From: Cyanidioschyzon merolae
Taxonomy: Eukaryota
Length of the DNA: 64,000 nt
Direction: 5' to 3' (one strand)
Assembly: GCA_000091205.1 (NCBI GenBank)
Contig: AP006496.2
The first letter of the stretch is position 1. The number at the start of each line of letters is the position of its first letter. The translations under genes and the position numbers were made by a program. Below the pieces are notes generated by a model. It worked only from the letters and a program-made list of their open reading frames with translations, ran no database searches and had not been told where the DNA came from. Below, piece by piece: positions 6,445-60,989 of the stretch.

Positions 6445-8772
6445 TCAACTCACATAGTGGTACAGGTTAGGGTCCCGCTCATCGCGGCCGATGTATTCAC
6501 GTTGGAGGAGCGATTCAACGCGCTGCTTCACATCCGAAACCGACGGTCCGAAGCAGAGCTCGGCGCCAAGCTGCTGCACGAGGTCTGCATGCGACAGACT
6601 CTTCTGTTTCTTCAGCAACCGCACGATGGCTGCATCGATTTGGTGCTGTCGATCAGGGCTCGCTACCGGGCCGCTCGGTACCTGCTCGGGCGGCCGCTCC
6701 AACAAGGCAATGTCCAAAAGTCGCAAACGACGACGACTTGTCTGCAGATCGGCGTTGAAACGATAGCGTGCAGGAGCGGTCACAGGCCCTGATGAGGCAG
6801 CTTCTGCACCACGCTCTCGAATCAGCACCGGACACTGCGATGAGGAGAGAGAATCCAGAATCCGTTCAAGCTCCGCAGAGTCCGCGATACCGGTCTGCTG
6901 CTGTAGTTCCGCAAGCGTCCAAGCATCCCGTTCGTTGAAGAGCAGCAGCACCACGGCCTGGCTCAGCGTAACGTGAAGCACTTTCTCGCCGTTAGCAAAC
7001 TGCACCCGTAGCTCTGCGGAACTCAGAGACGGCTCCCAGATAAGGCGCCTTCCAGAAAATCGTGCGTGATAAAAGCGATGAAAAGAGCGCTGCTGACTCT
7101 CCAGCCCCGGTGGTACCTGCAGCAAGAAAGATTCGCTACTGTTCCAGTATGCCTGTGTGATGACTTTGCAGGTGAACGACGGCAATCGAGATGAACCCGA
7201 TCCCGGACCCATTCGGTACTCCTGCAAAAGGTCCTGACTAAGATCCATATCTTTGAGCATATTGACGAGATGATTGACATAGACTGCGCCACATTCGGCG
7301 CGTAGCAGTTCCACCACGTACTGCTCGCAGGCCGTCGACGCAGTGAGATCGAATAGCAAGCGCTGTGCCAGATACTTTTTGTAAAAGGCCAGAAAACTAT
7401 CCTTGCCGCTAAGATAACGAAAGAGCTCCAAAAGCTTTCCGATTTTGCGCCGTATGTCCGGCTCCGGAATCGAGGTGCTGCTCACGCGCAGCAGGTCGTG
7501 AAAAGAGCGAGCCAAGCGCTCCGCCGGTGTAGGCTGGCGGGTGTTCAGCGCCGCCTCAAAAGCCGTCTGGGCTGCATTATGGAAACGAACGTCTGCCTGA
7601 AACGCTTCCCGTTCGGTTTGCTCGGCACGATCCAGCAACGCTAACAATCGCTCTATCATTTCGTGATCACGCGCCCGATCGTTCACGATCTGTGTCCCTC
7701 GAACACGAATATAATCACTGTAGCGCGGCACAAGACGCCACAATTCATCTATGGATCGCAACAGCACATAGAGACGACGCAAATCCGTTAGAGATACAGC
7801 GTCTAAGAGGCTCTCCAGGCCCCGATCCATCATCACACTCACACAGTGGCGACCGAGCACATCGTGCAGGATCGCGAACAGCGGTTTCTCCGTGCTCGGC
7901 TCGAGGTGGAGGCGGCAGCGCTCAGCCTCGGCCTGTGTACTGTGCTCAAAATAGGCCAAATAGTCCGATAGAGTTCCCTGTGTGACAAATTCGGTGCCTT
8001 TCGCCACATAAAATGCGCGCGTCTGCTGGAAGAAGAGCGGCTCGAAGTGGGTGCGATAGAAACCCAACGGTGCGAACATCTCCCTAAGAATAGCGCGTAA
8101 GTCTGAGCAATCTCCTCGCTGTTTGCCTTTGCGATCCAGCTCGATTTCCAGAAGCACTGCTCCGAGCGTCGGCAGGAGGACGCGTTGTTGTTCCGCGAGC
8201 ATGTGCTTCGCGAACAGCTCTAGCGCCATCTCCCACAGCGACGGCACCTGAGGACTTTCCGCCGCATAAGTCCGATCGAGGTAGAGAAAAATCGCCTGGA
8301 TATCCCGAAATCGCTCACAGAAAGCTCGCCACACATCGAGCACAGGAGCAAAAGCGGGCCGCTCCGTTGGTTCAACTGCCTGAGCGCTACCCTGTGCCAC
8401 GTGCAGCATAGCCGCTAGGACGGGATCGCTCAGCTGTTCCCGAAAAACGCGCTCGAGATACCCGTCCACCTCCCGCTGCAAGTCCGCGTACAGCTGCTTT
8501 GCGAGATGGTGCAGACACAAGTCCTCCACGCGGCGATAGTGCTCTTCGTACGAGAGCGGCCTCCGCGAAGAAGGCGAGAACACCTGGTCGAGTGCCCGTG
8601 CCAGGTGAGTCCAGCTCTCCTGATAGAACTCCTGGGGGAGTTTCGGCTCCCGCCGGAGCGGCCGAATAATGAGCTTTTTGGGTGCTCGCTGGTTTGATTC
8701 CATCTCCTCTGTGACTGAGCGGGTCCCAGGCGCTTCGCAACCAGCTCCAAACTCCTCGTTCGCAGCGTTCAC
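6445..8772 (-). CDS. CUL4: Cullin-4-like ubiquitin-ligase scaffold
   Basis: 775-aa ORF. The N-terminal KKLIIRPLRREPKLPQEFYQESWTHLARALDQVF resembles the CUL4 N-terminus. Cullin-homology and C-terminal winged-helix motifs are present (VNHLVNMLKDMDLS, IDAAIVRLLKKQKSLSHADLVQQL, ESLLQREYIGRDERDPNLYHYVS), including the neddylation-site region. Confidence 0.85.
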   Translation of the reverse strand: MNAANEEFGAGCEAPGTRSVTEEMESNQRAPKKLIIRPLRREPKLPQEFYQESWTHLARALDQVFSPSSRRPLSYEEHYRRVEDLCLHHLAKQLYADLQREVDGYLERVFREQLSDPVLAAMLHVAQGSAQAVEPTERPAFAPVLDVWRAFCERFRDIQAIFLYLDRTYAAESPQVPSLWEMALELFAKHMLAEQQRVLLPTLGAVLLEIELDRKGKQRGDCSDLRAILREMFAPLGFYRTHFEPLFFQQTRAFYVAKGTEFVTQGTLSDYLAYFEHSTQAEAERCRLHLEPSTEKPLFAILHDVLGRHCVSVMMDRGLESLLDAVSLTDLRRLYVLLRSIDELWRLVPRYSDYIRVRGTQIVNDRARDHEMIERLLALLDRAEQTEREAFQADVRFHNAAQTAFEAALNTRQPTPAERLARSFHDLLRVSSTSIPEPDIRRKIGKLLELFRYLSGKDSFLAFYKKYLAQRLLFDLTASTACEQYVVELLRAECGAVYVNHLVNMLKDMDLSQDLLQEYRMGPGSGSSRLPSFTCKVITQAYWNSSESFLLQVPPGLESQQRSFHRFYHARFSGRRLIWEPSLSSAELRVQFANGEKVLHVTLSQAVVLLLFNERDAWTLAELQQQTGIADSAELERILDSLSSSQCPVLIRERGAEAASSGPVTAPARYRFNADLQTSRRRLRLLDIALLERPPEQVPSGPVASPDRQHQIDAAIVRLLKKQKSLSHADLVQQLGAELCFGPSVSDVKQRVESLLQREYIGRDERDPNLYHYVS

Positions 8773-10039
8773 AAAACGAGCGCCTCTTGGAACGTACGCG
8801 AGCGCACCGCTGGCAGCGGTACGCTTGGCAACCGGTTAACCTAAAGCGGGTGTTGCAGCGGACACCATGAAAGACAGAAACCACTACCGGAGGGCAAGTG
8901 ACCCTGAAATCAAGAGTCATTGGTGAAATAGTGGCGATGGGGGCTGTTGTTAGCAATGCAGACTACCAGCGCTTGACTTTCGGTAACTGTTCTGGTCTAC
9001 TAAGGGTAGGGAGCTGGCTCGGAACGTTCCTGGGTGCCACAGGAAAACGACACCGCCACTTGGGACGCTGGCTGGTTGCTCACCAGAGCTTGTGAGCACT
9101 TGCTTGAGTTCGACATTCAGGGCTCATGTTTTCTGTAGAATGCACGTTTGCGCACTGTCTTGTTAAGTAGGGATGGAGCGTTCAGGGTTCTTGGTACTGG
9201 AAGCGCTGAACGTACGACACAGCCGAGCCAAGTGCCAGGGGAGCGGGAAGTGACTGGAGCGACGGTGTGATTAATTGACGACAACGAGGTCACTCACCGT
9301 AGTGTGCAGCTGGTAACGAGTATTCAGAGACGCTCGCGTGCAGCGTCCCGGGAATAAAACCAGGGGCAACTGAGACGCCCCGCAACGTTTCCGGGAAGCC
9401 ACACAGTTTCCATCGAGCCGGTTGGATCGCTTCAAAAGGAAGCCTTTCCCAGTATTTGACCTTGGTGGTTACTTTGTCTTCCACTGGGGCTTGCCCCTCG
9501 TTGCGAGTAGCGTGCATCACGCGAGACCTTCAACAGCGTATGTCACGGGATGCCCCGCCAGTTCTCGATCAGGAACAAAAGAGTACGGGACTTGCTGTTC
9601 TGGGCGTGCGGCAGTCGCCCCTAGTACGCATTCGTGAAACGTTTGTGGGCGCTTCTGGGCGTACGCTCTTGAAAGAGTTGCTGGCTCGAGTACAGTTTCA
9701 TGCGCGCTGGCAGTTGCTATCGTTACAGGCAAACGGAGGTTCCGCGCGGACCACGCAAGGATGCTTAGGCCGCAGACATCGGACTGGAGTCGGCTCTCAG
9801 CACAGAGCAGCTCCATCAATAAAGAGCGCGGAATGAACCGTAGGGAAATACCGCAGGCTCGTTCGTCGCTGGTATTTTCGGAATACGTCGTGCCGATTCT
9901 TCGCATAGGCACACTCACACGAGAATGAAACCGAACAGGTCTACGGACTCGGGCGTACACACGCCAAAGCCTGGCTCTCTTCCCAGTGGTACGAATAACA
10001 ACCCGTGCGGGCTTTTTCGGCGACTGCTTCTTTCTTGCT

Positions 10040-10600
10040 TTACTCTGTCTCGACCGCTCTGTTGTCAACAGTCGAGGGATACTCATGGCTGCGTTCAAGT
10101 CCCTGGGACGATGTTTCTGGCTGTTGTCGACACATTTCACGCACGATGTAAGTCGGGCGCTGCGCTTTGCTTGCCATATATTCACCTTGTTTATGTGCAG
10201 CCTTGATGCGCTCTTTGTAACAGTGACAATTGAGTGCGATCAGGTGTTCTTGTCTATCCATAACACGTCGTGCTGCGAGTTCCGCGCTGTGGCTCGTGAA
10301 CACCGGCTTCATCGCTCGGTTCGTGCACTTGCGCGGTACATGAGGCATATTCCGATGCACTCCTCCGTTTCCAAACCGGCTGCAGTACGCTACGATCACA
10401 TAGTTCTGCTGGATGATCGCCTCGATTACTTCGCTGTCCGCAGCACGCGCAAATGCAAACTGTTCCATTCGATGAAGGATTTGTGAAACGTGACGTTCAT
10501 GATCATGAAAAAAAGTACCGGAAGGAAAATCCAGGTTAGGGAGAAATTCGGGTAATCTAGATCCATTTGCGCTCTTTTCATGCAAACCAGTGACACAGTC
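10040..10600 (-). mobile_element. Copy A of a dispersed transposon-like repeat family; degenerate, with an ORF frame conserved in all three copies
   Basis: ORF 10040..10585 (FFHDHERHVSQILHRMEQ...YVIVAYCSRFGNGGV...EHLIALNCHCYKERIKAAH) is clearly homologous at protein and nucleotide level to 25243..25578(+) and 42908..43228(-). I could not assign it to a transposase superfamily. Confidence 0.45.
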
Positions 10601-11458
10601 CGTACTGGACGCGATTGCTGCGATGACTCTAGTCCGAATCCAAGACGCTTTTCATGCAGACGTAAGCAGTGCGGGCCTCTGGGAACAGATCCCGATGACA
10701 GGTATTGTTTTGCTGTTGAATGCGGTTTCGTCGATGGTCACGAAGCGATGGGGATTCTTCTTTAGCACGGAATCGACGATTTGTAGTGACAATCTCAGTG
10801 GACTTTCAGTGTGATCTTATGACTAATTCCTCAACAAACGCCATCGAGCACTTTTCGCTGTCAATGCAACCGCGTCAATAAATGCACCAACGAATCACCA
10901 TGAAACTTAACGATCGAAAACTTGAAGAATACGTGATTTGGGTTTCATACACGTAAGCATTCGAGAATCATGGAGGTTTCTACATACATATTGCATCGCG
11001 ATATCGGTTGTTCGACGAAACCCATCTTCGAGAGCGTCTCGAATCATCTTGATTCCGTTAACGAAACGTATTGCTGCGGCGAGAAGAACGAAGTCGAGAG
11101 AGCCACCCCATATAGACGATCGCGAGTCCCAAAACTACGTACGATGTCGATAGCCTTTATTGCTGTACTTCGAATATCAAGGATGTATATCAAAAAAGAC
11201 AGGAAAAATGGAAAAGGAGGAACAGAGCGAGCACGTCCCTGTTCCATTTTCGTCCACGACGGCTGGAGGACTGGGTATACGAACAGCGCTTTGCGATGAC
11301 GCGTCAGGTAGGTAACCCTGGAAAACAACTTGATGCGCCTACAACTTGCGTGAGCACTTGCTGAAAGCCATATTTTACTGAAGGCTGAATCAACGGACCC
11401 TGCAGATGAGTTTACGTCGACGTGACTGCGAGCCCGCGCAACCAGCACTAGCGGGCCG

Positions 11459-15839: not shown

Positions 15840-16530
15840 ATGACAAGCACAGGAATGCCCGATCAGCACATTTGTATGCATTTGTGCAGTTTTACTGCGA
15901 AAAGCAGAGTCAGCGTCATGCCACATTGGAGCTGGCTCGTGAGCGAGCCCAGGAAACGACGGGAAACGCGGCACCAGTTGGCGACTACGAAACGGTGCCG
16001 GAGGCACTACGGAGGCGTCCCTGCAGTCCAGCTCGGCTGCAGTGTGCGATCCAAGGCACCGAGTCTGCGGTATCGAATGCACGTACGGCGGCTTCTCATG
16101 AACGCGTTCCTCTATAATCATTGACCTGGTCCATTGGAACGAATCTAGGAAGCAGGGAACGGCTCGAAAGGCGCATCGACGTAATTAGACGAGTCTATGT
16201 CAATGCCAGAGGCAGTGCGGGATCGACGTCGCGGTCCTTTACGGCGTACGAGGTACGCCCCTCACCGTGATGCATTGCATGGTACGCAACGGCATCCAGA
16301 GCCACACCTGGATGGCCGGATTGAGTCCAGTTCTGCGATGTACCGAAGGTTTACACGCAGGACATGCGGGCATCGCCCGTTCTAGACATTGTGTAGCCTT
16401 GCGGTGCCGCCAAAGGCTGACGCCGGCGATACGCGCTGCTTCTTTAGGGTCGTATGGATTGTTCGACATCCGCGCTGATGCTCCAGATGGAAGCTGTGCC
16501 AGACCTGGTGGTGAACCCTTAAACCATCGG

Positions 16531-16828
16531 AAGCGGCGCTTCGGTTGCTTGCCGGACAGACGGCAGCATTCACGTATTTGGAAGCGTTCATTGAAACGCA
16601 ATGATTCTTCACGCTAAAAAAGTATCAGAAGCGGCGCTGCGGTTGCTTGCCGGACAGACGGCAGCATTCACGTATTTGGGAGCGTTCATTGAAACGCAAT
16701 GATTCTTCACGCTAAAAAAGTATCAGAAGCGGCGCTGCGGTTGCTTGCCGGACAGACGGCAGCATTCACGTATTTGGGAGCGTTCATTGAAACGCAATGA
16801 TTCTTCACGCTAAAAAAGTATCAGAAGC
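16531..16828. repeat. 98-bp tandem repeat, 3 copies
   Basis: The unit aagcggcgct(t/g)cggttgcttgccggacagacggcagcattcacgtatttgg(a/g)agcgttcattgaaacgcaatgattcttcacgctaaaaaagtatcag begins at 16531, 16629 and 16727. Copies are near-identical; the third is truncated. Confidence 0.9.
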
Positions 16829-17894
16829 GCCTGTGGAGCCGTTGTCGGTGCCCTGGCATATCCAGTAATATCGGAGAAAGAAACAACCATATCTTTCGCC
16901 GATTGCTCAGAAGCATGGTATCCGACTCAAAAATAGAGCAATCCAATCGTGTTGGATGACGGAACCGCACTATACCAGCGCCTTGCCCCAGGCGAGAGTT
17001 CAACACCGGCTCTCCGGGCTGCTGATTTCCTTTTCATCGAAAGGCTGCAGCAATCCAACACCATGCCAACACTGAGTACTGACGATTACGTCGAAAGTTG
17101 AGGCGACATAGAGCCTTTGCAGGCACCACAGGAGACTCCGTTGCATCAATCCCTACATTTCTGAGCCAGCAAGATGAGACTACAACGCCCACAGCGTGTC
17201 CCTCATTAAGCGCTTTACAGTGCCTCGCACATGATGTGTTCGTTTGGCTGTATACGTACTGGGACCGACGCTGTAGCTGGTCAGATGGTCATTGGAAATG
17301 GCGACCCATCAATGTATCCCGTGAAACGTGTGTGCAAGGCGGTAATCCTACGATCCAGCCGCATCTCATCTACTGCATCGAGCATCAGTAGTGTTCCCGC
17401 ACGCAGGTTTGATTGAAAGATCCCAGAGGAATACGGATAGCGGACAACCATGCCTCCAGAACTTTTATGGAAAGTTGGCTGAAGCGGTGCGACATGGCGA
17501 GGGAGGCTCGTCGAGCCTCTTCCAAGTACGAAGCTGAGCGATCCCGAACGACATCCTGCATCGCGTTTTCGGGGGATGCTCGCCTTTCATATGCTTCCAT
17601 CGGAAGCCCGTGACAATAGCCTCATACTGGCCTGCCGGTTTCGAGTGTGCTTCTATTTTTATTGTACTCTTTTCGAGAGGATCTCCCACTTCTCTCACTG
17701 GTGGAATTGTGTCCTCCTCGTGCACCTTGCAGGGCGGCATGGATTTGGTCGCTATGCTCTTCGTCCGTGTTCTTCATCGAAATTCAAACGAATTCGGTGG
17801 ACGACGGGACCAGAATTCTACTGTTCTATGTATGTCTCTACGATTCCTCAGGCGGCTTTTCGTCATCTAACAGAGGCAAGAAACGCCTGGAGTT

Positions 17895-18065
17895 CGTGAA
17901 CTGAGACGTTAACGCCGCCGTCCATATCAGACGATGTGCGGTGCTGATGACGAGACCCGCGGAGCTGACGCAATCTAACCTTGTGGGGTAGTTTCTCTCG
18001 CTCGAAATATGCAAGGAAAAACTGAAGTCGATAGCAGGGGCCCGCCGAAAAAGACCAGGAGGCGT
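17895..18065 (+). repeat. 160-bp dispersed conserved element, copy 1 (copy 2 is at 37735..37905)
   Basis: About 75% nucleotide identity over ~160 bp with 37735..37905 in the same orientation (acgccgcc...gatgtgc.g.gctga..acgagacccgcggagctga.gc.atc.aac...gatagcagggg.ccg...aaaaa.ac..gg). Both copies are intergenic. Confidence 0.6.
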
Positions 18066-18199
18066 CCGCACGTCAGTGGGCAGACATAGAGCCTACGGCG
18101 GGCATAGCGCCGCTCGTCACCACTGTACACCGGCTGTATAGCGTTTGTCGCTTGAAAGGCGTGTCGCTCTTGCTGGTAGCGAATGCCTGCGTGGCTGCT

Positions 18200-24256: not shown

Positions 24257-24825
24257 CCTCGTACGGTAGCTAGACGGAGCTCTTCCGTTCGACTATCGAG
24301 TAAAGAGCCGCTTTCTCGTTCTGAAACTGGTCGCCCACAGCGTCGAGCGTCGAGCGACAGCCTCAGCACTCGTTCGTGCCCTAAACTCGCGTTGAATAAA
24401 ACTGGAACACTGATGTGTACGCTCTGTTCTTGTCATTCGATAATTGTTTTAGATGTACAGTGTCGATATCCAAGTGCAGCTATCGGGACTGTCAAATTCA
24501 TGCGTACTTTTAGGATGCTCGGTTGTCTTTCCGGTGTGACGCCTTTGGCTCGTCGCAACTGGAACTCGCTGCACCACCGGAAAGATGATGATACGCGACA
24601 CCCTGGAACAGTGGCTCGCAGCATCATCGTTCGTTATCCAAGGCATGGGCAGAGGTCCCCAGTGTTCCCCATTTCCTTAGGTAGAGCATGCCCGAATCAG
24701 GTGTTCTTCAAGTTTTCGATGTTCCTGTTTCACGGCGGCTTGTGGGCGCAGCGATTCGCGCCGATGGATGAACCACGAGGACATACTCGACGTCGTTTCT
24801 CGATGACTCGTTCACAAGCTCGTGC

Positions 24826-25076
24826 CGGAACTTCACTCAACACGTCACTTCAAACCATCGATGTCGATCGAAAGTCGCGTCGTCATTTGTCTACGATCAT
24901 CGAGGAAACTGCATCCGATAACAGCATGATACTGCCTACGTGACTTGATCCCGGTTCACTCAACACGTCACTTCAAACCATCGATGTCGATCGAAAGTCG
25001 CGTCGTCATTTGTCTACGATCATCGAGGAAACTGCATCCGATAACAGCATGATACTGCCTACGTGCCTTGATCCCG
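24826..25076. repeat. ~125-bp tandem duplication (2 copies) immediately upstream of repeat-family copy B
   Basis: The unit ccgg..ttcactcaacacgtcacttcaaaccatcgatgtcgatcgaaagtcgcgtcgtcatttgtctacgatcatcgaggaaactgcatccgataacagcatgatactgcctacgtg.cttgatc is repeated head-to-tail with one mismatch. Confidence 0.9.
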
Positions 25077-25086
25077 GAGGCTTCCA

Positions 25087-25800
25087 TCATTCCTTTCTGG
25101 ATGGAAACGCTTTTTGGAGTCTGACTTGAGTCATCAAGTAGATCGCTTTAAGTAGAACGTGCCTCACTGATATGCATGAACGGAGCATAGATCGATCAAA
25201 AGTTCTCGACATGTTCTCGAGCATAGATTCTCCTTCCGGTGCTTGTTCCATCATGGACAGCATCGAGTTCCACAAATCGTCCATCGGATGGACCGGCATG
25301 CGCTTGCGTGTGCAACAGACAAAGAACTCTTCGAGGGCATCGACCAAAAGAAGCTCGTGATCGTGCGGTACGGCACCGGGTACGGAAACCGAGGACGGCA
25401 ACAACACGAGTCTCCCGTACCGGTCAACGGCATGGAGCAAGCGATGTCGTGCTGGTCACGCGTAACAGGGTCGACCTCGGGGACAGCGGTAGGCGTCGTG
25501 TACATCTGCGAACATCTGACTACATTCAGTTGTCACAGCTGCAAAGAGCGTACCGAGGCCGTGATGAAAAGTACGTAAACTGCAAGCGAAGCGTACCTGG
25601 CGACATACATCTGTGCATGAAATGCATGAGCAAAATTCGAGAGCAGCTGAGTTCGGACTTTTTCTGCTGTTATCAGCAGCGTTCGAATACTGACGACAGA
25701 GCTGGAGCAACAGCAGAGACCTGCATATGTAAAGCCGGACACACGCGAGAGATGAAGAGCGCGCAGTCACAGCGAACACCCGCACAACCCTGACACTGAC
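25087..25800 (+). mobile_element. Copy B of the dispersed transposon-like repeat family
   Basis: ORF 25243..25578(+) MFHHGQHRVPQIVHRMDRHALACATDKELFEGIDQKKLVIVRYGTGYGNRG...EHLTTFSCHSCKERTEAV is homologous to copies A and C. It is flanked on the left by the 125-bp tandem duplication. Confidence 0.45.
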
Positions 25801-27154
25801 CACAGTATAAACAAACCAAAACCTGAGCTCTTCCGACCCAGATTGGTAAATAAACCCGTTCGATTCCTCTGACATGGGTGTACCTCGTCAAGCCCTCAGG
25901 TGGTATGACGTTATGGGACACGCGGTTAGCCGACGAGACCTCTACCCGTTGCGTCTTGTCTGCGGACAGAATTCTCCGAATAACCTACCCGCTAGAGACA
26001 GGTGCATGCGCTCGTCCGAGGCGACCTAGTGGAACATCGAGAAACGCTGGTGAAACTCGAGTCTCATATCCTCAGACGGACGACGATTCTCCTGGACACG
26101 CTTGCCTGCACCTACTGTTGCTCGACAGGGCCTCGCTAGGTGACTAGAAGCGCTCGCCTGCCGGGAGGTCGTCTCCGTGCCTAGCCTGCGTCCAAGGTAC
26201 GAAATACCTTTCGCACCCGGTCCGGTACGTGGAACCACCAGGAGAAGCACAGGTCGTAGAAAACGGAAATAGACGGTGAACTCGAGTCATAGTTTAGCTT
26301 CGGTGTCGCCTACGTGTTCACCAGTTGCGGTACAAAGAAGAATACCCAAACTCTTGTGAACGGCTCCAGCGGAACGTATCTTTCAGACCAGCCAACAACG
26401 CTGCAATCATAGCCATCATACTATGTCGCTGAAGCTCGCTCACCTACCTCATAGGAGAGCCTTCTCAACCGTGCACCTTGACGTCGTCTGAGTGCCAAGG
26501 TGCGTCCACGAGTCCTCATTTGAGCGTCTGCGTATCAACAACAACAAAAACGATCCCTCTGGGAGCTCCGTATCAACGAACGTTGGCTTGGGCGTTCAGC
26601 TCGCGGTGCGAAACTGTCTGAGCAGGCACTTTGGGTCTTGGCCTGGTCTCTTTCTTTTGGCTAACGTTAGAAAAACTGCTTGAACGAGGTATCCTGGTCT
26701 TCGACGGAGACCTGCACGACACTGGCGATTGGTCTGTCCGCTAGGTTGCGAACAGCGCTTTTCAAGCGCTGCGTCGACGATACCGCTTCGTTCCTCGTCC
26801 GTTGAAGCGCTGGAAAACGAAAGCCTTTGGTCGTTCTACTGCTAGCCAAGAGCGCTCTTGGAGCGTAACGTCAACGTCATCGCGTAGTACCCAGCTTGCC
26901 GGGGCGTTGTTGTTGCTGTTGTTGTTGAACAGGACCGCATCCCGGTCAGCGACAACGTCTGTGATTCGTTTCGTTTGCGAACGACACTGCTACTTTGATA
27001 CGAGCGTCCGTAAAGTGACGGCCGCTTCTCGGTACCAGCTGAGCGAGCACGCTCCGAGTCCAAATCCTGGATGCGCTGCATGCTCGGAGAGTGCTTCGCT
27101 CGAGCTTACTGGTAAGCGAGTCGGTGAGCAAGCGCCAACACACAACATTGTGCC

Positions 27155-33718: not shown

Positions 33719-35167
33719 TCAAGTTTGGCGTTGGCGTCGGACCCATGTCAATAGGTCCCGCTGGTTAATCAGTGGAAGTTGCGTAGAGGAACGGGAGGAG
33801 GTTTCAGGCAGCGCGGCATCACTGACGACTCGATAAAGCGCTCGTTTGGATCGAAAGTACTCGCGAAAATCGTTCAAATCCCAGTGCAGCTCGCGAACGG
33901 AGCGATTCGATACAACAGACCCTTTCGTTGCGCTCTGGTTTCCCGCGACTAGTAGGAAAAACAAATGGACTTGGTCACGGGCTTTGGCGTAGGTGTAGCC
34001 CATGTCGGAGCGACCATCGCGGTGTTGCTTCAAAAGTTGGACCAGAGCAGTGCGACGAGCTTGCGCGACGGCAGCCGGCTCGCGCTGTTGCTTTGTGATA
34101 AACGCAGGTTGGTTAGCGAACGACGACACCGATGCAACAGCAGACTGCCGCAGTCCAAAATGTGCACTCATCGATCGACACCAGTGTGGACGGGCAAGCG
34201 AATGCTGCGCATACGCATGATCCGCCAGTGCAGTTTCGTGGATCCAGTCATCCGGTGCGGCGGGGCTCGGGGCTTCTCGCGCGTCGCCGGCGCTATCCGC
34301 ACCACCGAGGAAACAACTTCGACAGACTGGGAAGCAGAGCGCGCGCTGCGCTGGACAGTCACGACAAGGTGGTGACGAGGTATCCGTCGCCATGGCGATG
34401 CACCATGCGTCCCAGATGTAGAAGAGGTCTGGCTCGCTCTGTCGAACGCCGCAGCAGTGACAAGGTTCGTGGTATCTCAACAAGCCGTCTTGGGCCAGCT
34501 TCGCTGGAGAGCGTCCAAGGCCAGCGCGGACCCGTGTTCCGCCGATCCGTGACCAGCTTCGCACCGTGTAGAGCGCCCGGCTGAGGGAGCATCCGAACAC
34601 TTGCGCGGCAAGTGTGGTCCAGAAACTGGACCATCGAGCATAGGGAAGCGTTTCGCAAGCCGCTGCACATGCGCCACGTTTCCCACAACTGCCTTGTCCG
34701 CGTTCCAGGACCTCTGCCCAGGTAGGATAGGCGCTCACCAGGGCGTACACGCTGCGCTGTGCCAGCCAGAGTCGCTCGGTTGCACGTCGACTTTCCACAG
34801 CGCTCGGAACTATACATTCAGACTGTGGGTGATTATCATCACAGTTAAAGCTATCGTCAACGTCAACGAACAGGTGGTAGAGAATGCGCAGCCGCAGTTC
34901 CACGGGCAACGTGGTGAAAGGGTCCTTCGCCGCAGTCTCGGGGGCAGCTTCTCCTGCAGCTGAGCGCTGCACCAGACTCCAACGCGGACGCCTTTTCGCA
35001 GACGATTCGAAAGGCACCTCAGCGCCATTGTTACTCGGTATTTCAATCAAATCTTGCAGAAGCAGATTCGTTCCACGTAGCTGGGGTAAGCGCCAGGGTA
35101 CGGTGCGCGACATGAGCGCTGCACAACTACCGCGTGCCTTCAAGTGCAGGAGTCGTACTGGGGACAA
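33719..35167 (-). CDS. F-box-like protein (hypothetical)
   Basis: DPFTTLPVELRLRILYHLF is an F-box consensus (LP.EL...I...L). The remaining 400 aa are Cys/Trp-containing with no recognised domain. It is convergent with the kinase gene across a (TG)n/(GCT)n microsatellite gap. Confidence 0.4.
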   Translation of the reverse strand: MSPVRLLHLKARGSCAALMSRTVPWRLPQLRGTNLLLQDLIEIPSNNGAEVPFESSAKRRPRWSLVQRSAAGEAAPETAAKDPFTTLPVELRLRILYHLFVDVDDSFNCDDNHPQSECIVPSAVESRRATERLWLAQRSVYALVSAYPTWAEVLERGQGSCGKRGACAAACETLPYARWSSFWTTLAAQVFGCSLSRALYTVRSWSRIGGTRVRAGLGRSPAKLAQDGLLRYHEPCHCCGVRQSEPDLFYIWDAWCIAMATDTSSPPCRDCPAQRALCFPVCRSCFLGGADSAGDAREAPSPAAPDDWIHETALADHAYAQHSLARPHWCRSMSAHFGLRQSAVASVSSFANQPAFITKQQREPAAVAQARRTALVQLLKQHRDGRSDMGYTYAKARDQVHLFFLLVAGNQSATKGSVVSNRSVRELHWDLNDFREYFRSKRALYRVVSDAALPETSSRSSTQLPLINQRDLLTWVRRQRQT

Positions 35168-35200
35168 GGAAATGCGCGCCGGATCGACGCGCCGGCTGGC

Positions 35201-35935
35201 GCTGCGGTTGCGATTTCAAAAATGGATCGTGGGATTTTCCTCAGTTTCATAGAATATATACGTAAATATACATCGATGTTCAAGACTGACAGTGCTGCGG
35301 TTGCGATCTCAAAAATGGATCGATGGGATTTTCCTCAGTTTCATACAATATATACGTCCATATACATAGGTGTTCAAGACTGATAGTGCTGCGGTTGCGA
35401 TCTCAAAAATGGATCGATGGGATTTTCGTTCGTTTCATAGAATATGTACGTAAATATACATCGATGTTCAAGACTGACAGTGCTGCGGTTGCGATCTCAA
35501 AAATGGATCGATGGGATTTTCCTCAGTTTCATACAATATATACGTCCATATACATAGGTGTTCAAGACTGATAGTGCTGCGGTTGCGATCTCAAAAATGG
35601 ATCGATGGGATTTTCCTCAGTTTCATACAATATATACGTCCATATACATAGGTGTTCAAGACTGATAGTGCTGCGGTTGCGATCTCAAAAATGGATCGAT
35701 GGGATTTTCCTCAGTTTCATAGAATATATACGTCCATATACATAGGTGTTCAAGACTGATAGTGCTGCGGTTGCGATCTCAAAAATGGATCGATGGGATT
35801 TTCCTCAGTTTCATAGAATATATACGTCCATATACATATGTGTTCAAGACTGACAGTGCTGCGGTTGCGATCTCAGAAATAGACTGATAAGATTTTCCTC
35901 AGTTTCATAGAATATATACGTACATACGTCACGTA
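35201..35935. repeat. 94-bp tandem satellite, ~8 copies, with two alternating sequence variants
   Basis: The unit gctgcggttgcgatctcaaaaatggatcgatgggattttcctcagtttcata.aatatatacgt..atatacat.g.tgttcaagactga.agt starts at 35201, 35294, 35388, 35482, 35576, 35670 and 35764, with a degenerate copy at 35858. Variant a (..gtaaatatacatcgatg..gacagt) and variant b (..gtccatatacataggtg..gatagt) follow the order a-b-a-b-b-b-b. ORFs 35144..35383 and 35323..35571 are artefacts of this array. Confidence 0.95.
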
Positions 35936-37734
35936 TACAGACCAGAGATCTCCGAAGGCGCGCTTGCTACCAACGAATGGAAAAGTATCCATTGTTCCAC
36001 ACGTTACTTCCAAGTACTGCTACCCATACGTTCAGTCGGAGGTATGTATCGATGGATGCAGCCAACGTGACGCTAGGATGTGTGTCGCGTAGCGCTTTGA
36101 GGCCTTCCAGCGAGGCTCGCTCCATATCCGTTTGCCTAATATCCTGCTGGGTACTTCGTTCGTTTGCTAATGCGCCTGCGAGCCTGCTTGCTGCTTCGCG
36201 CATCCGCCAGGCCGTTGTCTGCTGTTGCACGCCGTCTTCCACAGAGGGCCAGGTATGGTACGAATCGTTCTGCTGCGTCCATACGTCTCGTGACAAGTTC
36301 AGCATGAAACGCGAGCGAGCACATCTGGCTTTGCTTATCTATCCCAGTAAGTGTGTCGCATAGCAGGTGATATCCGATGGGGCGTCAATGAAAATAACGT
36401 TTGCTCCAGGCGGACGCAGGCGTTGTCGCAAGTACGCCCCATGCTGGATGTGGTACTTGATCGCGTGCATCGATCACAAGCATGAGCATTAGCGTGCGCC
36501 GCGGTCTCATTTCACTCGTGAACCCTCTACCAGACGAATGGAGCACGATCGGCACCTGGAGATTTACGAAGGCCGGCGTTTTCATTTGCATGGCTGAGCA
36601 GGGCCGCAGCCGGTGCCTCTTGGTTTCCGAGTCGCTGCGAAGACCTCGGAGCTACGTTCTGCTGCTGGGAGTATTCGAACGCCTCCAAGATGCGTGCGTG
36701 CGTGCGTGCGTTTTTTGCTCGACTGCTCGTGTTACCGGTGCCCGAGCCGCCGATGCTTGCGTCACCGTTGCTGACGCAATGACGTCGTTTTCCGAGCAAC
36801 GTCTCGAGGAATAACGGGCACAAGCGAACGTTATGACGCAAGCAAGTGCTGAAAGCTCCGGATTTTCGTTTCTGCTGCATCGCTCTCGGTTCCGTGAAGT
36901 GTCTGACGCTCCACAAACCGATGGGATTGCGAATAGATACGCGTTAGAGCGCTTCCATGATGCTAGTTTGCTCTGACGATATCGAGCGTAGGCGTTCGAG
37001 TCTAAAAGTGATATGCATCTCCTCGCATTGTATGGAAATGGTTCTTCTGCTCAGGCGCACCGAAAGCGCGCCACTGGTGCGGCATTCGGGAAAGAGTCTG
37101 TCGCGCCTGATCGCTGGTCCTCGCAGTCCGCGAGACCCGGGCGTCCGCACGGCGCCATAAGTGCCGCACAGGGCGTTCACGGGCGGCATTCGGCACCTGC
37201 AGGACCGCTTGAGGGCGCCAGAGTCTCCGAATCGACGAACCGATCATTGTGACCTGTGGATTTCAAGGTCTGACTCGGACCGATGGACGCACTCCCGGAT
37301 ACGGATAACCATTGGAACGCAGAGGATCCATGGTTCGTGGAAACGATCCTATAGTCTTTCACCTCATTGGTGTTCCATCTCCAGGTTGCTTGTCATCAAA
37401 TGCCGCTTCATTAGGTATACCAGAAGCTTTCAAAGTGCGTTCGTTTCCGAAAATACAAAATCCAAGGGATAGGTATGGAGATGCACGTCGGAGATCTTGG
37501 AGGACCGTCATCGCCGGGTGCCGGAGAAAAACACCGGGGGAAGATGCCTTCTCACTCACCATTGAGCGGAGAGGAGCAGCCAACGAGGAAGATGAAGGAG
37601 AAGCGGGGGAGAGATCGGCGAGAAAAAGAAGTTTATCGGACGGGACGATGACGAGTCTGTAATGACAATGAGGGTACGAGTTCTAGCAATGCTTCCACCT
37701 GTGCGTTCAACTATCGGCAATAAACGCATGAAGT

Positions 37735-37905
37735 TCGTGAACCTAGACTTTTACGCCGCCATCAGTATCAGGAGATGTGCAGAGCTGAACACGAGACCCG
37801 CGGAGCTGAGGCGATCCAACTTTCTGGGCCAGCTTTTGATGCTCGAACTGTGCAAGTAGAAATTGAGAGCGATAGCAGGGGGCCGGTCTAAAAACACTGG
37901 GAAAC
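37735..37905 (+). repeat. 160-bp dispersed conserved element, copy 2
   Basis: See 17895..18065; same orientation, about 75% identity. Confidence 0.6.
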
Positions 37906-41461: not shown

Positions 41462-42514
41462 TCAGGATGTGCGACGTTGGTACGAACCTCGAAAGCGCCA
41501 CAGCATCCACAGCGCTACGCAAAGGCCCACAAAGTGGCTTAAAAGCGCGTTGGTGTTCGCTTGCACCACGAAAATATCCAGCGCTTGAACGTAGCCGACA
41601 GTACCACCACCGGCCTGAATACTGCCGGTCGCGTAGAATGGTAGCGGCCCTGCCACGCCTTGGCTCAGCGCCTTGGCTAAAAGGACTCCACTGATGCTCT
41701 GCGCCCCGATAAGCGTCAGCGCCATCCCTAAAATATTGATGAAGACACCTATCCGCAGCGTGCGGAAGATGTTTTCGCTGCGTATGCCGTAGCCCATCTT
41801 GCCCGCGCGCATCAGACGCCGGGCAAGGCGGATGTACCCATAAGCCCAAAACACCGATATAAACGCAAAAACGAGGCCAATGCCGGCAAATATCAGGCCA
41901 GTGGATGCGGCAGTCGTCGTTGTTGTCCCAGCTCCGCGAGTTCCCTGCAGAATGGCCACCGCAAACAGGGTAATGCCTCCAGCAACTATCGAAAGCAGTA
42001 GTTGCGCCCACCAGGCCACCGCCCCGAGGCGATAGAGTGCAGCGCTCACACGAGTCACATCCAGACTATTAGGGGACTCCCCAGAGTCTCCAATATCTGG
42101 CGAAAAACTCTCGTCTATGTCCTCGTCGGGTTCACGGGCAGCGTGTGCAGGCCGGCTGGGGTCGGCGCCGCTCGCGCTCCTGCCCTGCAAACGCAGACTC
42201 CGCCACCAGCACGACGTGCGCCGTTCACGAACCCGCCGTACACTGGTGGTAATCAGGTGTCGTGGCAGTCGATCCCCGACAGCCTGTCGATGAAACGCCC
42301 TTGGCACTGCAGAAAATATCGTCGTGAACGCCAAATCCATTAGAGGAACGTTCTTGTAAGTAGCGAAGCGCTTTCCAGTGAGCGCTGCAGCATTGCTGCG
42401 CGTACGGAGATTGTGTGTGGCGGGACGCGCAGCGGCTGGCACTTGGCTGTTCTCCCATCCAGCGTCGATACTGCAAAGCCAGAAGAGCATAGCACGAGAC
42501 ACACTTTTATACAT
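41462..42514 (-). CDS. Multi-pass membrane protein (4-5 TM), function unknown
   Basis: The 350-aa ORF has several long hydrophobic Gly/Ala-rich helices (LLLSIVAGGITLFAVAIL, GLIFAGIGLVFAFISVFWAYGYI, IGVFINILGMALTLIGAQSI, LSHFVGLCVALWMLW) and a hydrophilic N-terminal region. It is possibly DUF3611-like, but I cannot confirm that. Confidence 0.45.
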   Translation of the reverse strand: MYKSVSRAMLFWLCSIDAGWENSQVPAAARPATHNLRTRSNAAALTGKRFATYKNVPLMDLAFTTIFSAVPRAFHRQAVGDRLPRHLITTSVRRVRERRTSCWWRSLRLQGRSASGADPSRPAHAAREPDEDIDESFSPDIGDSGESPNSLDVTRVSAALYRLGAVAWWAQLLLSIVAGGITLFAVAILQGTRGAGTTTTTAASTGLIFAGIGLVFAFISVFWAYGYIRLARRLMRAGKMGYGIRSENIFRTLRIGVFINILGMALTLIGAQSISGVLLAKALSQGVAGPLPFYATGSIQAGGGTVGYVQALDIFVVQANTNALLSHFVGLCVALWMLWRFRGSYQRRTS

Positions 42515-42560
42515 GGGGTGTACATACTAGCAATTGGGCTTCTTCCCAGTGTCATGAACG

Positions 42561-42805
42561 CCAGCGTGCTAGGGCTTTTCCCATGATTGCATCCTTTTTT
42601 TCTCTGTGATCCTAGGCTGTAACGACACCTGTCTCTCCTGTCTCTGTTGCTCCGTCGTCACCAGTCGAAGGACATTATAGATACCAGCGTGCTCGGGCTT
42701 TTCCCATGATTGCATCCTTGTTTTCTCTGTGATCCTAGGCTGTAACGACACCTGTCTCTCCTGTCTCTATTGCTCCGTTGTCACCAGTCGAAGGATATTG
42801 ATAGC
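42561..42805. repeat. ~124-bp tandem duplication (2 copies) adjacent to repeat-family copy C
   Basis: The unit ccagcgtgct.gggcttttcccatgattgcatcctt.ttttctctgtgatcctaggctgtaacgacacctgtctctcctgtctct.ttgctccgt.gtcaccagtcgaagga is repeated head-to-tail. Copy A has a related single segment, ctgttgtcaacagtcgagggata, at ~10057. Confidence 0.85.
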
Positions 42806-43440
42806 AGCATTCGAGTCCCAAGGACGCAGCTTCTGGTTAAGATCGACTCAGTTGGTACACGGGTAGCAATAGCAATCTATAGCTCGCTGGTTATTTTCAT
42901 TTTTTTCTTAGGGAGCCTCGGTGCGCCCTTCGCAGCGGTAACGCTCGACTGGTGTCAGGTGCTCCACAATGTCTAACACTGTTCCTCTTTCGAGGGTTGA
43001 CGCGTGCAGCGCGCAAGCTTGCTTCATCGCTCGATAAATGTCCTTGACCGATGGAGACGGCTTCTCTGCAGGCTCTCCTCTGTTTCCACGTCCAGAGTCG
43101 CGGCTTTTAGTAACGCTCTTGTTCTCGGTGATTCGTTCTGCGAGTGCGCTGTTCGCTGCAGGTACGAGCGCACGCTGTTCCATTCGATACAGGATTTGTG
43201 GAACGCGGTGTCGTCCATGATGAAACAAGTACGGGACAGAAAATCCGGTCTGGAGAACCTGTCCGGAGATTTCGATCTGTCTTTGTTCGCTTCATGCAAA
43301 GTCGTGAAGCACGCGCCACTGGAAGCGGTCTTGGCGAAGTCTAAAGTCCGAGTCCAAGGCCCTGTTGCATGCAAACAGGAGAGACGCGAATCTCTGAGAA
43401 CGTATTCCACGCGAGACATATCATGATGATGTCGGATTCC
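42806..43440 (-). mobile_element. Copy C of the dispersed transposon-like repeat family
   Basis: ORF 42908..43228(-) MFHHGRHRVPQILYRMEQRALVPAANSALAERI...GRGNRG...VEHLTPVERYRCEGRTEA is homologous to copies A and B. Confidence 0.45.
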
Positions 43441-45287
43441 GTTTCATCGATCGGGAAAAAAGAGCCGGATTTGGCTCTCGAACGAAATCGATGACTTAAT
43501 GTGACAAATTCAGGACATATTTTCCATGAACTTATGAACCATTCGTCAAGAGATGACGCCGAGGTTTTTCCTCGCCAATTCAGGGGCACGAATCGCTGCA
43601 CCCATGAGTTGCCCTGAAACAGAAGAGATCAAAAACTCGGGGAGTGTGTGATCTGAGCATGCTAGACCGAAGGAAATAAGATGCGTGGATGTTCGTATGT
43701 ATGAACTTGGTAAATGATATCAATGATTTAACGAATTCATGTTCGAAGGCGCTGCGAGCCATCTTGTTTCCCGCTCCGCCACGACTTCCATCGGCGAGGA
43801 TTCGAAAGCGCCATCTGGAACGTGCAGCCGAGAATCTCAGAAATAGGTTCCCATGCGTACGCCCTTCTTGTTGCACTTCGAATACCAGGGTACCGCATTT
43901 ACGAAATAGTTCGAGAAAGAAGTCGAGTAGCAGCAACAGAGCGATCAGCTCAGTATTCTATATCCATGGTACACGGGTTCTGATCGCGAGCACCATTCCA
44001 TGAAACAGGCGTTCCGCAAGCGCCTGCTAGACCGAGTTCGCTCCTGCTGGCATGCGGTGCATCACACGAGTACAACGTCCAGCGCAATGAATACACCAAT
44101 GGAAACCCATCCCGGTGATCGCGCATATCCATGCCCTGACTTGTTGCTGACACCACCGAGTATCGATATGTTTGCCGGGCGAGGTTCGGCTGGTGACGCA
44201 TTCATCGAACGATGAACGCACACAGGTTCGAGGCGTCGACGCACCAGGCTCAAGTGAGCCCGCCAAGGGCATCGCAAGCCCGTATTCGTGGTCTTTTTGA
44301 ATGGAGCAAGCCTCGGCGAGCGCGTCTGCCTCTATGGAATCATAGACGACGAATGCCCCGTGACGCGTACATCTCCCAGGTGTGCTGTGCCTGTGGCATG
44401 CGCATACCAATGTCAAGCGAGAACAACATTTTCCATAATGAGATTTCCGACGCACACAGCTCTGTACCGCGAGTTGCTTCCTGCTCTGGTCATAATAGGC
44501 GTAGTTCCAGGTGGCTGCGCCCCGACCGGAAACGCTTTCCCAAAAAAGTCATCACCAGAGGGTGAAAGCGATGAACGCATCCTCCCGAGCGATCTTGAAC
44601 GCGTCTTTTTCTGCATACCGCCATGAATGGAGAGCGCTCCACCAGAACACAACGGATATCCGAGTACGCATCACTGCAAAAGCTGGACGTCTCACGGCAG
44701 GTGGTACGCTCAGCGAGTCAGTCGCGGTGAGGCGTGCACGCTACACGTGCTCGGAAATGGACAACTCGCGTTTTGCACGGATTCCAAATTTTTCATCTTT
44801 CGCGTTTGCTCTGTCTCTGGCCCAGAATGCAAGAGCGTCACGAACAAGCCTTGCCCCGTAACGAAAGCAACGTACCAGATCGTTGCGGAGCAGTGGAAGC
44901 ACTGTACAGATTCGCGCTTTGGAAGCATCTGAAAAGCTACTTAGTACATATTTAAACAATAATGAACGTAATGTACATTCGTGCTTTGAAACGCTCCCGA
45001 AAGCAATCCTACCATCTACTTACACAATACCGAAAGCAATACACATTCGTGCTTTGAAACAATCCCGAATGCAATCTACCGCATCCTTCAATGATAGCGA
45101 AAGCAATCTCCATCAGCGTCCAACTGTATCCATAGAAAGAGCGCTGGTAGCGTCAGCCGCGCAGGTTAACCCAGCGGTACACGCCTTGCCCCAGGGGATG
45201 GTGCAGTTCGCCGCCGCCGTCGATATGCACTTGAGCCGGCGACGAGCATCGCGGAAGCAGTGGTATCGGGAGTGGCGATAGACGACC

Positions 45288-59600: not shown

Positions 59601-60989
59601 TCCCTTCTCGGAGGCTTTTCGGGATGATCCTTGTCGTCATTGAATGGTGGCTTCTGCTACATCCTCAACTTTTCGTTCACTCGCTGAGTTGGCATTGGTG
59701 TGGTCCCTGTCCCGCATATCCGGTTTTTCCTTGGGATTCAGACGCATTGGATGGCCAGCGCGCCAGAATCTCGCCTATAATGTGCATGTATCTCCTATTC
59801 TCCGCATAACATTGCTTTATGGTGTCCGTCACGAGCATGCCTGCGGAACGAAGCGCGCCGTTGGGCTCCCTCCTGCTCTAGAACAGAGAAGCAACAGCGT
59901 ATTTGAGGGCTCGTGATGGAAGAGAGTGGCTTGTCGAAGAACAGTGCTACGCATGCGAACGACTTGTCTGCTGATCGACGGGCGTGGATATGGCGTTCGA
60001 TAACAGAAAAGACGACTTTGACTTGGTGCACCCATGTTGCATAGGCTGGCGCGAACAACAGCTCAACGACAGTCGCGGTTGCGTACTCCTCGAGCGCTTT
60101 TGCGTGACGGAAAGCTACGTCGTCACACATCGGGGCGGAAGAATTTGGGAGTTAGAAGCAGTGAAATGCGTCGACAAAGGCAGAGGTGTCGAACGATGCT
60201 GTCCGCTTGGCGATTCGTAGGCGAACACACGATTCAATCACTGGTAGGGCTGATTTGTCGTCATTCCTTTGGTCTTTTTTGACGAACAGCGGAATGCTGC
60301 TCTTTGAGTGCCCATATACGGGTCCACAATATCTCCTGAACAATGCCTGATGGTGTGAGGCGAACACATGTCGCTCCTGTAGACATGGTTCGCGTTTCAT
60401 CTGGGAACCGTTCGTGTAGTATCCGTGAACTGGTGGTCTCCTGTAGCAACGCGCTCGTTTCTCGGTCCAAACGTGTCGCCTCATGACCATTCGTATCACC
60501 GGTATGGATACCTCACATTGTGTACCATCTCTGGTGCTGTTTCCTAAAGAATCTGTGGAGTCGAATCGATGGACAGGGTGACAGTCGTGCAGACTGAGTT
60601 TCAGACGTTCTGTTTTGGCTACACGAAGCTCACGACAAGGACTCAAAGCAGGTGGATTCATCCTCCTGCTTATCTTAGAACGACTGCAATCTTAAGTCAG
60701 TCCTTTTTCGCAAGCCAGCAGTGGCAGAACCAGGCCTCCATACGAAAGTTCTCCGACCTACTGGAATCATTCCTTTTGTTGAACACATGCGAAAGAAGCA
60801 AACAACTAGAGGCGTACCGGCGCATGCAGTCCAGACTTCAGGGTTCTGGGTGGAACTCCCGAACCCATGAACGCAAATCACAACTTGTCACTCACTCAGA
60901 AATTCTACTGAGATAATTCCGTTCGAGCAAAATGTAGCGGGCATGCTGTAGCCGGAGACTGCGTCGCTTTCGAGTCTCCTCACTGGGTC

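Follow-up and report, generated by a model that had tools for sequence, protein, structure and literature searches.

A short repeat family in Cyanidioschyzon merolae as a probable decayed derivative of a mariner-Fanzor1 transposon

The genome of the red alga Cyanidioschyzon is usually called very poor in transposons. A stretch of 64,000 nucleotides from Cyanidioschyzon merolae (contig AP006496.2 of assembly GCA_000091205.1), referred to here as the window, contains several diverged copies of a dispersed repeat, which raises the question of what these copies once were and whether they still do anything. In a preliminary description, made from the letters of the sequence, they were taken for three copies of a degenerate, unclassified and possibly novel transposon with a frame-conserved open reading frame (ORF). 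The follow-up analysis indicates, with a probability of about 90%, that the family derives by deletion from a mariner-Fanzor1 transposon of a Cyanidioschyzon-like red alga and is old, extinct and non-autonomous. Fanzor1 is a eukaryotic homolog of TnpB and an RNA-guided RuvC nuclease. No function is evident for the copies in the window, which are dead.

Self-comparison of the window and a DNA profile of the family (nhmmer) resulted in four copies, with no others within the window:

3478-4857, plus strand: copy D, whole element, 1380 bp, a full-length nhmmer match to the family profile
9913-11265, minus strand: copy A, whole element, 1353 bp, of which the earlier span 10040-10600 is the 3' part
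24384-25880, plus strand: copy B, whole element, 1497 bp including a 123-bp internal duplication; the earlier span 25087-25800 is its 3' half
42471-43979, minus strand: copy C, whole element, 1509 bp including a 123-bp internal duplication

A dispersed family is thus present at the three places first reported, with copy D as a fourth member. The real elements are 1.35-1.5 kb long, about double the size first given, and homology reaches well upstream of the earlier coordinates. The nucleotide identity, first estimated at 65-75%, is 64-69% within blastn high-scoring segment pairs (E down to 1e-28) and 53-61% in global pairwise alignments across the full length, while each copy is 72-76% identical to the family consensus. 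Further members were collected via a protein database (L009 first, later L010-L015), and metagenome contigs were scanned with a single transposase consensus. In this way, at least 11 copies beyond the four in the window were obtained from metagenomes of the same alga, which brings the family to at least 15 copies: 11 distinct loci at the DNA level and four members seen as proteins only. The consensus was built by majority rule, from five copies at first and later from seven, and the copy limits were set by aligning six left ends and six right ends.

In the consensus, the 5' 60% of the element is a transposase of the Tc1/mariner-IS630 type that ends just after the second catalytic Asp (MYSLDIRSAAIRAYEF...FGVAPSTLCRW...RKITD...FMAIDETAFDSSMILPTGYAPRGSRLF...VIAVIASSGG...GSIDGSKFLDLF...GTCFIMDNIAFHKS). 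The seven-copy consensus matches the Pfam profile PF13358 (DDE_3) with an E of 9.6e-9 and 35.7 bits, above the cut-off of 28.6, over profile positions 4-100 of 146. It is also 35% identical over 235 amino acids (E 1e-42, residues 5-232) to the transposase of an intact metagenomic relative, L027, with the alignment stopping right after MDNIAFHKS, and it is collinear with the 'Mariner' transposase of PUl-1 from Pythium ultimum (24% identity, E 4e-5). In the window itself, residues 59-222 of the L027 transposase directly match copy A at 11014-10508 (tblastn, E 9e-11), and frame-corrected copy A reaches DDE_3 below threshold (E 6e-4, 20 bits). Pieces of the transposase are legible in single window ORFs of copy C (...CFIMDDTAFHKSCIEWNS) and copy B (...CSIMDSIEFHKS). 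The third catalytic D/E is absent, the remnant ending about 10 residues past the second Asp, and the family is therefore non-autonomous. The transposase remnants are located as follows:

3557-4262, plus strand: copy D, from the helix-turn-helix through the second catalytic Asp, mapped from the seven-copy consensus
10474-11190, minus strand: copy A, found by tblastn with the L027 transposase and by the DDE_3 match
24453-25282, plus strand: copy B; the window ORF at 25172-25360 contains ...SIDRSKVLDMFSSIDSPSGACSIMDSIEFHKS
43189-43898, minus strand: copy C; the window ORF at 43024-43419 (minus) contains ...TCFIMDDTAFHKSCIEWNS

The 3' 40% of the consensus element is the C-terminal third of a Fanzor1 nuclease (...QRALACAADRELAEGIAQKKLVIVGYGTGCGNGGGHRGEPSVPVKGMYRAMK...VVDI.EHLTTFKCHRCKGRTEA...CMKCVDNNQKQRNRDFNAAMNIPRLL). 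The two remnants lie in different frames of the consensus, which is far more open than the single copies. The C-terminal motif of TnpB and Fanzor proteins has been described as [TS][TS]-x-x-[C4 zinc finger]-x(5,50)-RD (Bao & Jurka 2013, PMC3627910). In Fanzor1, the RuvC-I Asp sits 125-275 residues upstream of the TS motif. The consensus carries the C-terminal signature as EHLTT-FK-CHRC...CMKC...RNRDFNAAMNI (TT-x-x-CxxC...CxxC...RDFNAA) and scores 32-34 bits against PF07282 (Cas12f1-like TNB; cut-off 26.3). Alignment of the frame-corrected copies to seven published Fanzor1 C-termini using hhalign gave a probability of 97% (E 3e-11), compared with at most 0.3% for the other five frames under the same procedure. 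The N-terminal part of that alignment had seemed, before the DDE_3 match, to favor FMAIDETAF as the Fanzor RuvC-I motif; this candidate was rejected, since the stretch belongs to the transposase, read in a different frame, and holds its first catalytic Asp.

The intact metagenomic Fanzor1 protein P0012 matches the consensus with an E of 5e-48 and about 63% identity in the core (tblastn). By the same method, it recognizes every copy in the window: copy A at 10513-10223 (residues 301-395, 38% identity, E 5e-14), copy B at 25276-25545 (E 1.5e-11), copy C at 43231-42929 (E 2.6e-11) and at 42868-42719, the region of the RD motif, and copy D at 4193-4414 (E 6e-5). The consensus further aligns to residues 559-766 of the 786-aa Fanzor1 of L027 (40% identity, E 2e-25). 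Counted on the 786-aa L027 protein, the remnant begins at residue 559, and the GLDPGR motif, the RuvC-I Asp and the WED/REC part are deleted; lacking RuvC-I, the nuclease of the short family cannot have been active. Its nearest intact proteins, P0012 and the L027 Fanzor, carry an IETDG motif and a GYGxGxGNGG motif and exceed 700 aa, and by sequence affinity the remnant appears to belong to the Fanzor1 clade and not to Fanzor2 or TnpB. The Fanzor1 remnants in the window are the following:

4274-4799, plus strand: copy D, C-terminal third with the GYGxG motif, zinc finger, RD motif and basic tail
9966-10462, minus strand: copy A, C-terminal remnant, found by tblastn with P0012
25294-25825, plus strand: copy B, C-terminal remnant and core of the ORF in the preliminary description, found by tblastn with P0012
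42529-43177, minus strand: copy C, C-terminal remnant and basic tail, found by tblastn with P0012

The ends of the elements carry repeats as well. The consensus left end, CACCCGTGTCAGATGAAAATAGAAC, pairs with the reverse-complemented right end, CACCCATGTCAGAATGGAATCGAAC, as an imperfect terminal inverted repeat (TIR) of about 26 bp. Its alignment score of 8 stands against a null of -7.4 +/- 3.7 and was reached by none of 2500 internal 34-mers. In addition, the ends resemble the 27-28-nt TIR of the intact relatives L027 and L028, and TA is found directly outside four of the six right ends and no more than 1-2 nt away in the remaining two. Two termini in the window illustrate this structure:

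25855-25880, minus strand: copy B, right TIR, the best-preserved terminus, whose reverse complement reads TA followed by CACCCATGTCAGAGGAATCGAAC
3478-3503, plus strand: copy D, left TIR, CACCCGCGTCAGGTTCGAGCAGAAC

The intact relatives show what a complete element of this kind looks like. Four metagenome contigs (L025-L028) have a transposase match followed by a Fanzor-core match about 2 kb downstream. In L027 (23-3637) and L028 (24-3633), from JGI Ga0102927 and Ga0209937 and with a GC content of 50%, a 3.6-kb element is present at two different insertion sites with TA at both ends. The order in L027 is TA, a 27-nt TIR (TACAACCGTGAAAATTAAAATGGAACA), a 329-aa transposase with the complete catalytic triad (IDET...MDN...NPIE), a 786-aa Fanzor1, the second TIR arm and TA. 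This element may still be active. A third database search gave the intact Fanzor1 relatives P0010, P0011, P0012 and P0014; the intact relatives are 27% identical (E 5e-9) to the protein of CMe-1, known from the C. merolae family CMe-1A. P0012 is the 551-aa called product of an open 724-aa Fanzor1 frame on contig L016 (5050-7224, plus), which is closely related to the Fanzor remnant of the window family and has no adjacent transposase. Its neighbors are 'Swiss-army-knife' RNA-repair genes (PTP-SAK/kinase, RNA ligase, 2H-SAK) and a Peptidase_S74 protein. A viral origin of L016 was suspected and not supported; the neighboring genes do not settle whether the contig is cellular or viral.

The consensus aligns to separate segments of the L027 transposase and Fanzor1, and the short family therefore corresponds to a full element minus about 2.1 kb. 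The parent would have been a Tc1/mariner-IS630-type element of about 3.6 kb with TIRs of about 27 bp, inserting at TA and carrying on the same strand a DDE transposase of about 330 aa followed by a Fanzor1 of about 790 aa. As is known for Fanzor and TnpB proteins in general, the parental Fanzor1 would have served as a nuclease guided by RNA. One internal deletion presumably took out the last third of the transposase, in which the third catalytic residue lies, together with the spacer and some 560 N-terminal residues of Fanzor1, fusing the two remnants out of frame. Profile positions from about 20 to 1419 are covered at all 11 DNA loci, which gives one common junction, and since all loci share it, the deletion would have preceded amplification. 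The resulting element of about 1.4 kb, which kept both terminal repeats, was presumably moved in trans by the transposase of full-length elements. It spread to at least 15 sites, presumably lost its activity afterwards and has decayed neutrally.

The ORF of the preliminary description covers parts of both remnants. Its start, F(F/H)H(D/G)H.RHV.QIL.RME, corresponds out of frame to (C)FIMDN(I)AFHKS(F)IEWN, the transposase motif with the second catalytic Asp. The beginning of the earlier pattern (FHHGQHRVPQILYRME) is thus out-of-frame transposase, and the remainder of the ORF is the decayed C-terminal core of Fanzor1. The Tc1/mariner signature had been missed because it is situated upstream of that ORF, with a partial overlap in a different frame. 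The three ORFs have no match in Pfam, whereas the consensus exceeds the thresholds for both DDE_3 and PF07282; the element is consequently of a known kind, mariner-type with Fanzor1. Its description as a degenerate transposon is borne out by the two coding remnants and the inverted termini.

The preliminary observation as a whole was partly confirmed, but its reading frame is conserved no further than the nucleotide identity would yield. The peptide pattern is reproducible, and the three ORFs share 35-36% amino acid identity, but this conservation is no better than that in other frames. In six-frame blastp between copies, scores are comparable in all frames, and every frame has an amino acid identity of 0.21-0.42 and a ratio of nonsynonymous to synonymous substitution rates (dN/dS, omega) of about 0.45-1.3. 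In the ancestral frame, mismatch rates at codon positions 1, 2 and 3 are 0.41, 0.43 and 0.45, with 9-12 stops per copy; the frame chosen earlier is interrupted by four stops in copy D, and no family copy has an open stretch of more than 250 aa. Within the population, 1.0% and 1.9% of sites are variable in copies B and C, compared with 1.0-1.8% in neighboring intergenic DNA and 0.1-0.3% in most coding regions. Because no frame is preferred, changes are even over codon positions, stops are present and polymorphism is at the intergenic level, the copies are decaying neutrally with an unconstrained reading frame. A dN/dS near 1, which the preliminary description had associated with a dead noncoding repeat, is indeed found; it shows the copies to be dead, which does not mean that they never moved.

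Tandem duplications of about 125 bp, first reported as flanking two of the copies, do exist (123 bp) but lie inside the elements:

24832-25077, plus strand: copy B, 123-bp tandem duplication of two units, 99% identical, inside the transposase remnant (repeat family D4)
42561-42799, minus strand: copy C, 123-bp tandem duplication, 96% identical, inside the 3' tail (repeat family D5)

The related segment said to abut copy A is A's own, single-copy version of the stretch duplicated in B. Both duplications are recent, with units 96-99% identical, and are polymorphic among the metagenome strains or contigs used for comparison with the window (L001, L002 and L005-L008): the B duplication is a single unit in L005-L008, and that in C is one unit in L001 and two in L002. 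The copies were also described as lying entirely in intergenic DNA, which holds for all except copy C, whose right end overlaps the first ATG (42514) of an ORF with a DUF3611 domain. The right terminal region at 42471-42514 covers the first two ATGs (42514 and 42490) of this ORF (41462-42514, minus). The DUF3611 gene either takes its 5' end from the transposon terminus or has its true start codon further downstream.

Several points weigh against the derivation from a mariner-Fanzor1 element. The TIR matches at about 21 of 26 positions only, and TA is kept at just one or two of the six left ends. Pfam searches with single window copies gave no match at E up to 1 other than the sub-threshold DDE_3 match of copy A, and both above-threshold domain calls come from a consensus of only 5-7 decayed copies. 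The L027/L028 element is only 35-40% identical to the window family at the protein level, and a full-length parent of this exact family was not found in the same genome. Intact relatives have an insert of about 45 aa between the two halves of the zinc finger that is absent from the window family, and the parent was therefore not identical to L027. Finally, a deletion is not formally separable from another recombination event that joined two gene fragments.

An origin outside mobile DNA has been weighed against these remnants. The repeats could be a host gene family or segmental duplications, that is, pseudogenes of cellular genes, as four copies lie within 64 kb and none has an intact target-site duplication on both sides. 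Yet both coding remnants are transposon genes, the copies occur in both orientations with unrelated flanks that begin exactly at the terminal repeats, further copies are located on unrelated contigs, pairwise distances are star-like, and an intact relative is present at two sites with TA duplications; such an origin is accordingly given very little credence. A solo long terminal repeat was also considered and rejected once coding remnants and inverted termini had been found. Identity with the published CMe-1A family would fit a host that is apparently the same, a similar level of decay and a shared Fanzor1 derivation (Bao & Jurka 2013, PMC3627910). At the DNA level, this identity is already refuted: the CMe-1A and family consensuses have no significant similarity (blastn; best 13-17 nt, E >= 0.17), the CMe-1 protein matches the four copies only at E > 3 (tblastn), and CMe-1A is described without TIRs and without a transposase, while true CMe-1A fragments are found elsewhere in the window (17875-18161 and 37416-37902).

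It is slightly less improbable, though still very unlikely, that the copies remain functional, be it by encoding a small conserved protein or a domesticated Fanzor fragment or by acting as a regulatory module or a structured RNA. In favor of this, the 1.4-kb elements contain few indels for a divergence of about 40% between copies, the right end of copy C abuts a gene start, and the 3' tail is the expected place of the Fanzor guide RNA (omegaRNA). The lack of a favored frame, the equal change at codon positions, the stops in every copy and the intergenic density of polymorphisms argue against this. Neither Rfam nor a tRNA scan gave a match, the 3' tail has only a weak consensus structure (-5.2 kcal/mol) and the consensus tail does not fold better than shuffled sequence (z = +0.27); for an omegaRNA, no convincing consensus structure was seen in the tail, where decayed copies cannot show covariation. 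NCBIfam and PDB sequence searches gave nothing useful.

A more speculative extension, itself unlikely though less so than the preceding readings, concerns the way in which the short elements spread. Guide RNAs of Fanzor and TnpB are normally encoded next to the 3' end of the nuclease gene. The short elements retained both terminal repeats and the 3' tail beside the Fanzor remnant, and for this reason they may have been 'guide-only' satellites, which would have used the transposase of a full-length element for movement and its Fanzor1, via their own omegaRNA, for homing or retention. Separately, L027/L028 and the 724-aa open frame of L016 may represent a still-active mariner-Fanzor1 lineage. 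If so, this lineage would provide candidate new RNA-guided nucleases, which would be thermo-acid-tolerant only if they came from hot-spring algae.

The preferred reading, a deletion derivative of a mariner-Fanzor1 element, has close parallels. Fanzor1 genes in Mariner-type transposons were described in 2013; among them are, from Pythium ultimum, PUl-1, which is 3620 bp long and has TA duplications, and PUl-2 (Mobile DNA 4:12, PMC3627910). The shared features are the gene order of a Tc1/mariner-IS630-like transposase followed by Fanzor1, terminal repeats of about 24-33 bp, a probable TA target-site duplication that is clear at both ends of L027, a transposase consensus collinear with that of PUl-1 and a similar length of the intact relative L027. 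In contrast to PUl-1 and PUl-2, the window family has lost an internal part, is 1.4 kb long and contains no complete gene; its transposase has the low identity to PUl-1 given above, and it occurs in a red alga. CMe-1A is the only Fanzor1 family reported for C. merolae, with a 3169-bp consensus and about 150 copies that are each about 80% identical to it (PMC3627910). Both families are old, heavily decayed and Fanzor1-derived, probably in the same host lineage. They differ in that CMe-1A is 3.2 kb long, lacks TIRs and a transposase, and has a degenerate zinc finger in its 734-aa Fanzor1, whereas the window family has TIRs, a DDE_3 remnant and a canonical CxxC...CxxC finger.

With bacterial TnpB of the IS200-IS605 and IS607 elements and with Fanzor2, the remnant shares the C-terminal RuvC and zinc-finger (TNB) domain, PF07282. 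It differs in the GYGxGxGNGG motif and in closest intact relatives (IETDG, >700 aa) of the Fanzor1 type, and the mobility gene of the family is a DDE transposase, not a TnpA tyrosine recombinase or a serine recombinase as in TnpB elements. Non-autonomous deletion derivatives of Tc1/mariner elements are an established life history of class II transposons. The window family resembles them in its internal deletion, retained terminal repeats, dependence on a transposase in trans and neutral decay, and it differs from typical miniature inverted-repeat transposable elements in being larger (1.4 kb) and in containing recognizable pieces of two genes. It is thus probably an uncatalogued deletion derivative of a known kind, which may already stand in Repbase or Dfam.

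With this assignment, about 6 kb of the "intergenic" DNA of the window is explained as transposon debris. The Cyanidioschyzon-like genome would hold, beside CMe-1A, a second and older Fanzor1-associated family that is linked to a mariner/IS630-type transposase. Fanzor1 genes have been reported to travel inside different DNA transposons (Bao & Jurka, PMC3627910), a pattern into which the window family fits. The intact relatives, with a 329-aa transposase and a 786-aa Fanzor1, are of possible interest for the mining of RNA-guided nucleases. Gene callers have annotated 'hypothetical proteins' of 90-500 aa on decayed copies in metagenomes, often in non-ancestral frames (for example, L005-L008 at 8586-9140 and 9250-9804, and P0001-P0009, P0013 and P0015). 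These entries are almost certainly not real proteins, and short ORFs such as the 184-aa "hypothetical proteins" are not genes.

Other relics of transposons are present in the window. A longer decayed stretch at 58251-60151 (minus) matches residues 216-310 of the L027 transposase at 60151-59888 (E 4e-7) and, immediately downstream on the same strand, residues 125-509 of the CMe-1 Fanzor1 at 59322-58251 (23-28% identity, E 1e-7). It carries exactly the parts that are missing from the short family, whose DNA profile does not detect it, and looks like another mariner-Fanzor1 relic. The CMe-1A fragments, 72-76% identical to the consensus, are located at 17875-18161 (plus), which is a 3' end, and at 37416-37532 and 37661-37902 (plus), which form an internally deleted copy (37416-37902). 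They share 78% identity (repeat D3), and the CMe-1 protein is 54% identical at these fragments. It was from these CMe-1A matches that the host was taken to be C. merolae or a near relative.

The window as a whole is intron-poor eukaryotic DNA of about 55% GC with long single-exon ORFs. Their products include a thioredoxin, a cullin, a MatE transporter, a leucine carboxyl methyltransferase, NCBP3, a GCN2-type kinase, a bifunctional aspartokinase-homoserine dehydrogenase and proteins with DUF3611 and DUF726. An exact look-up of the 1024-aa aspartokinase-homoserine dehydrogenase ORF gave no match, probably because its true start codon differs. Two window proteins have exact sequence matches on metagenome contigs from JGI and ENA, which share about 99% identity with the window. 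Intergenic tandem arrays are found at 35136-35999 and 16521-16829, with a 94-bp unit (about 7-9 copies) and a 98-bp unit (three copies), respectively, and the copy numbers of both differ between the window and the metagenome strains, as seen from overlapping alignment blocks. Together with the two 123-bp duplications, these arrays suggest that tandem units of about 100 bp are often gained and lost in this genome. Short local direct repeats are present at 62875-63017 and 44949-45076, with 67-nt units that are 78% identical and 60-nt units that are 82% identical, respectively.

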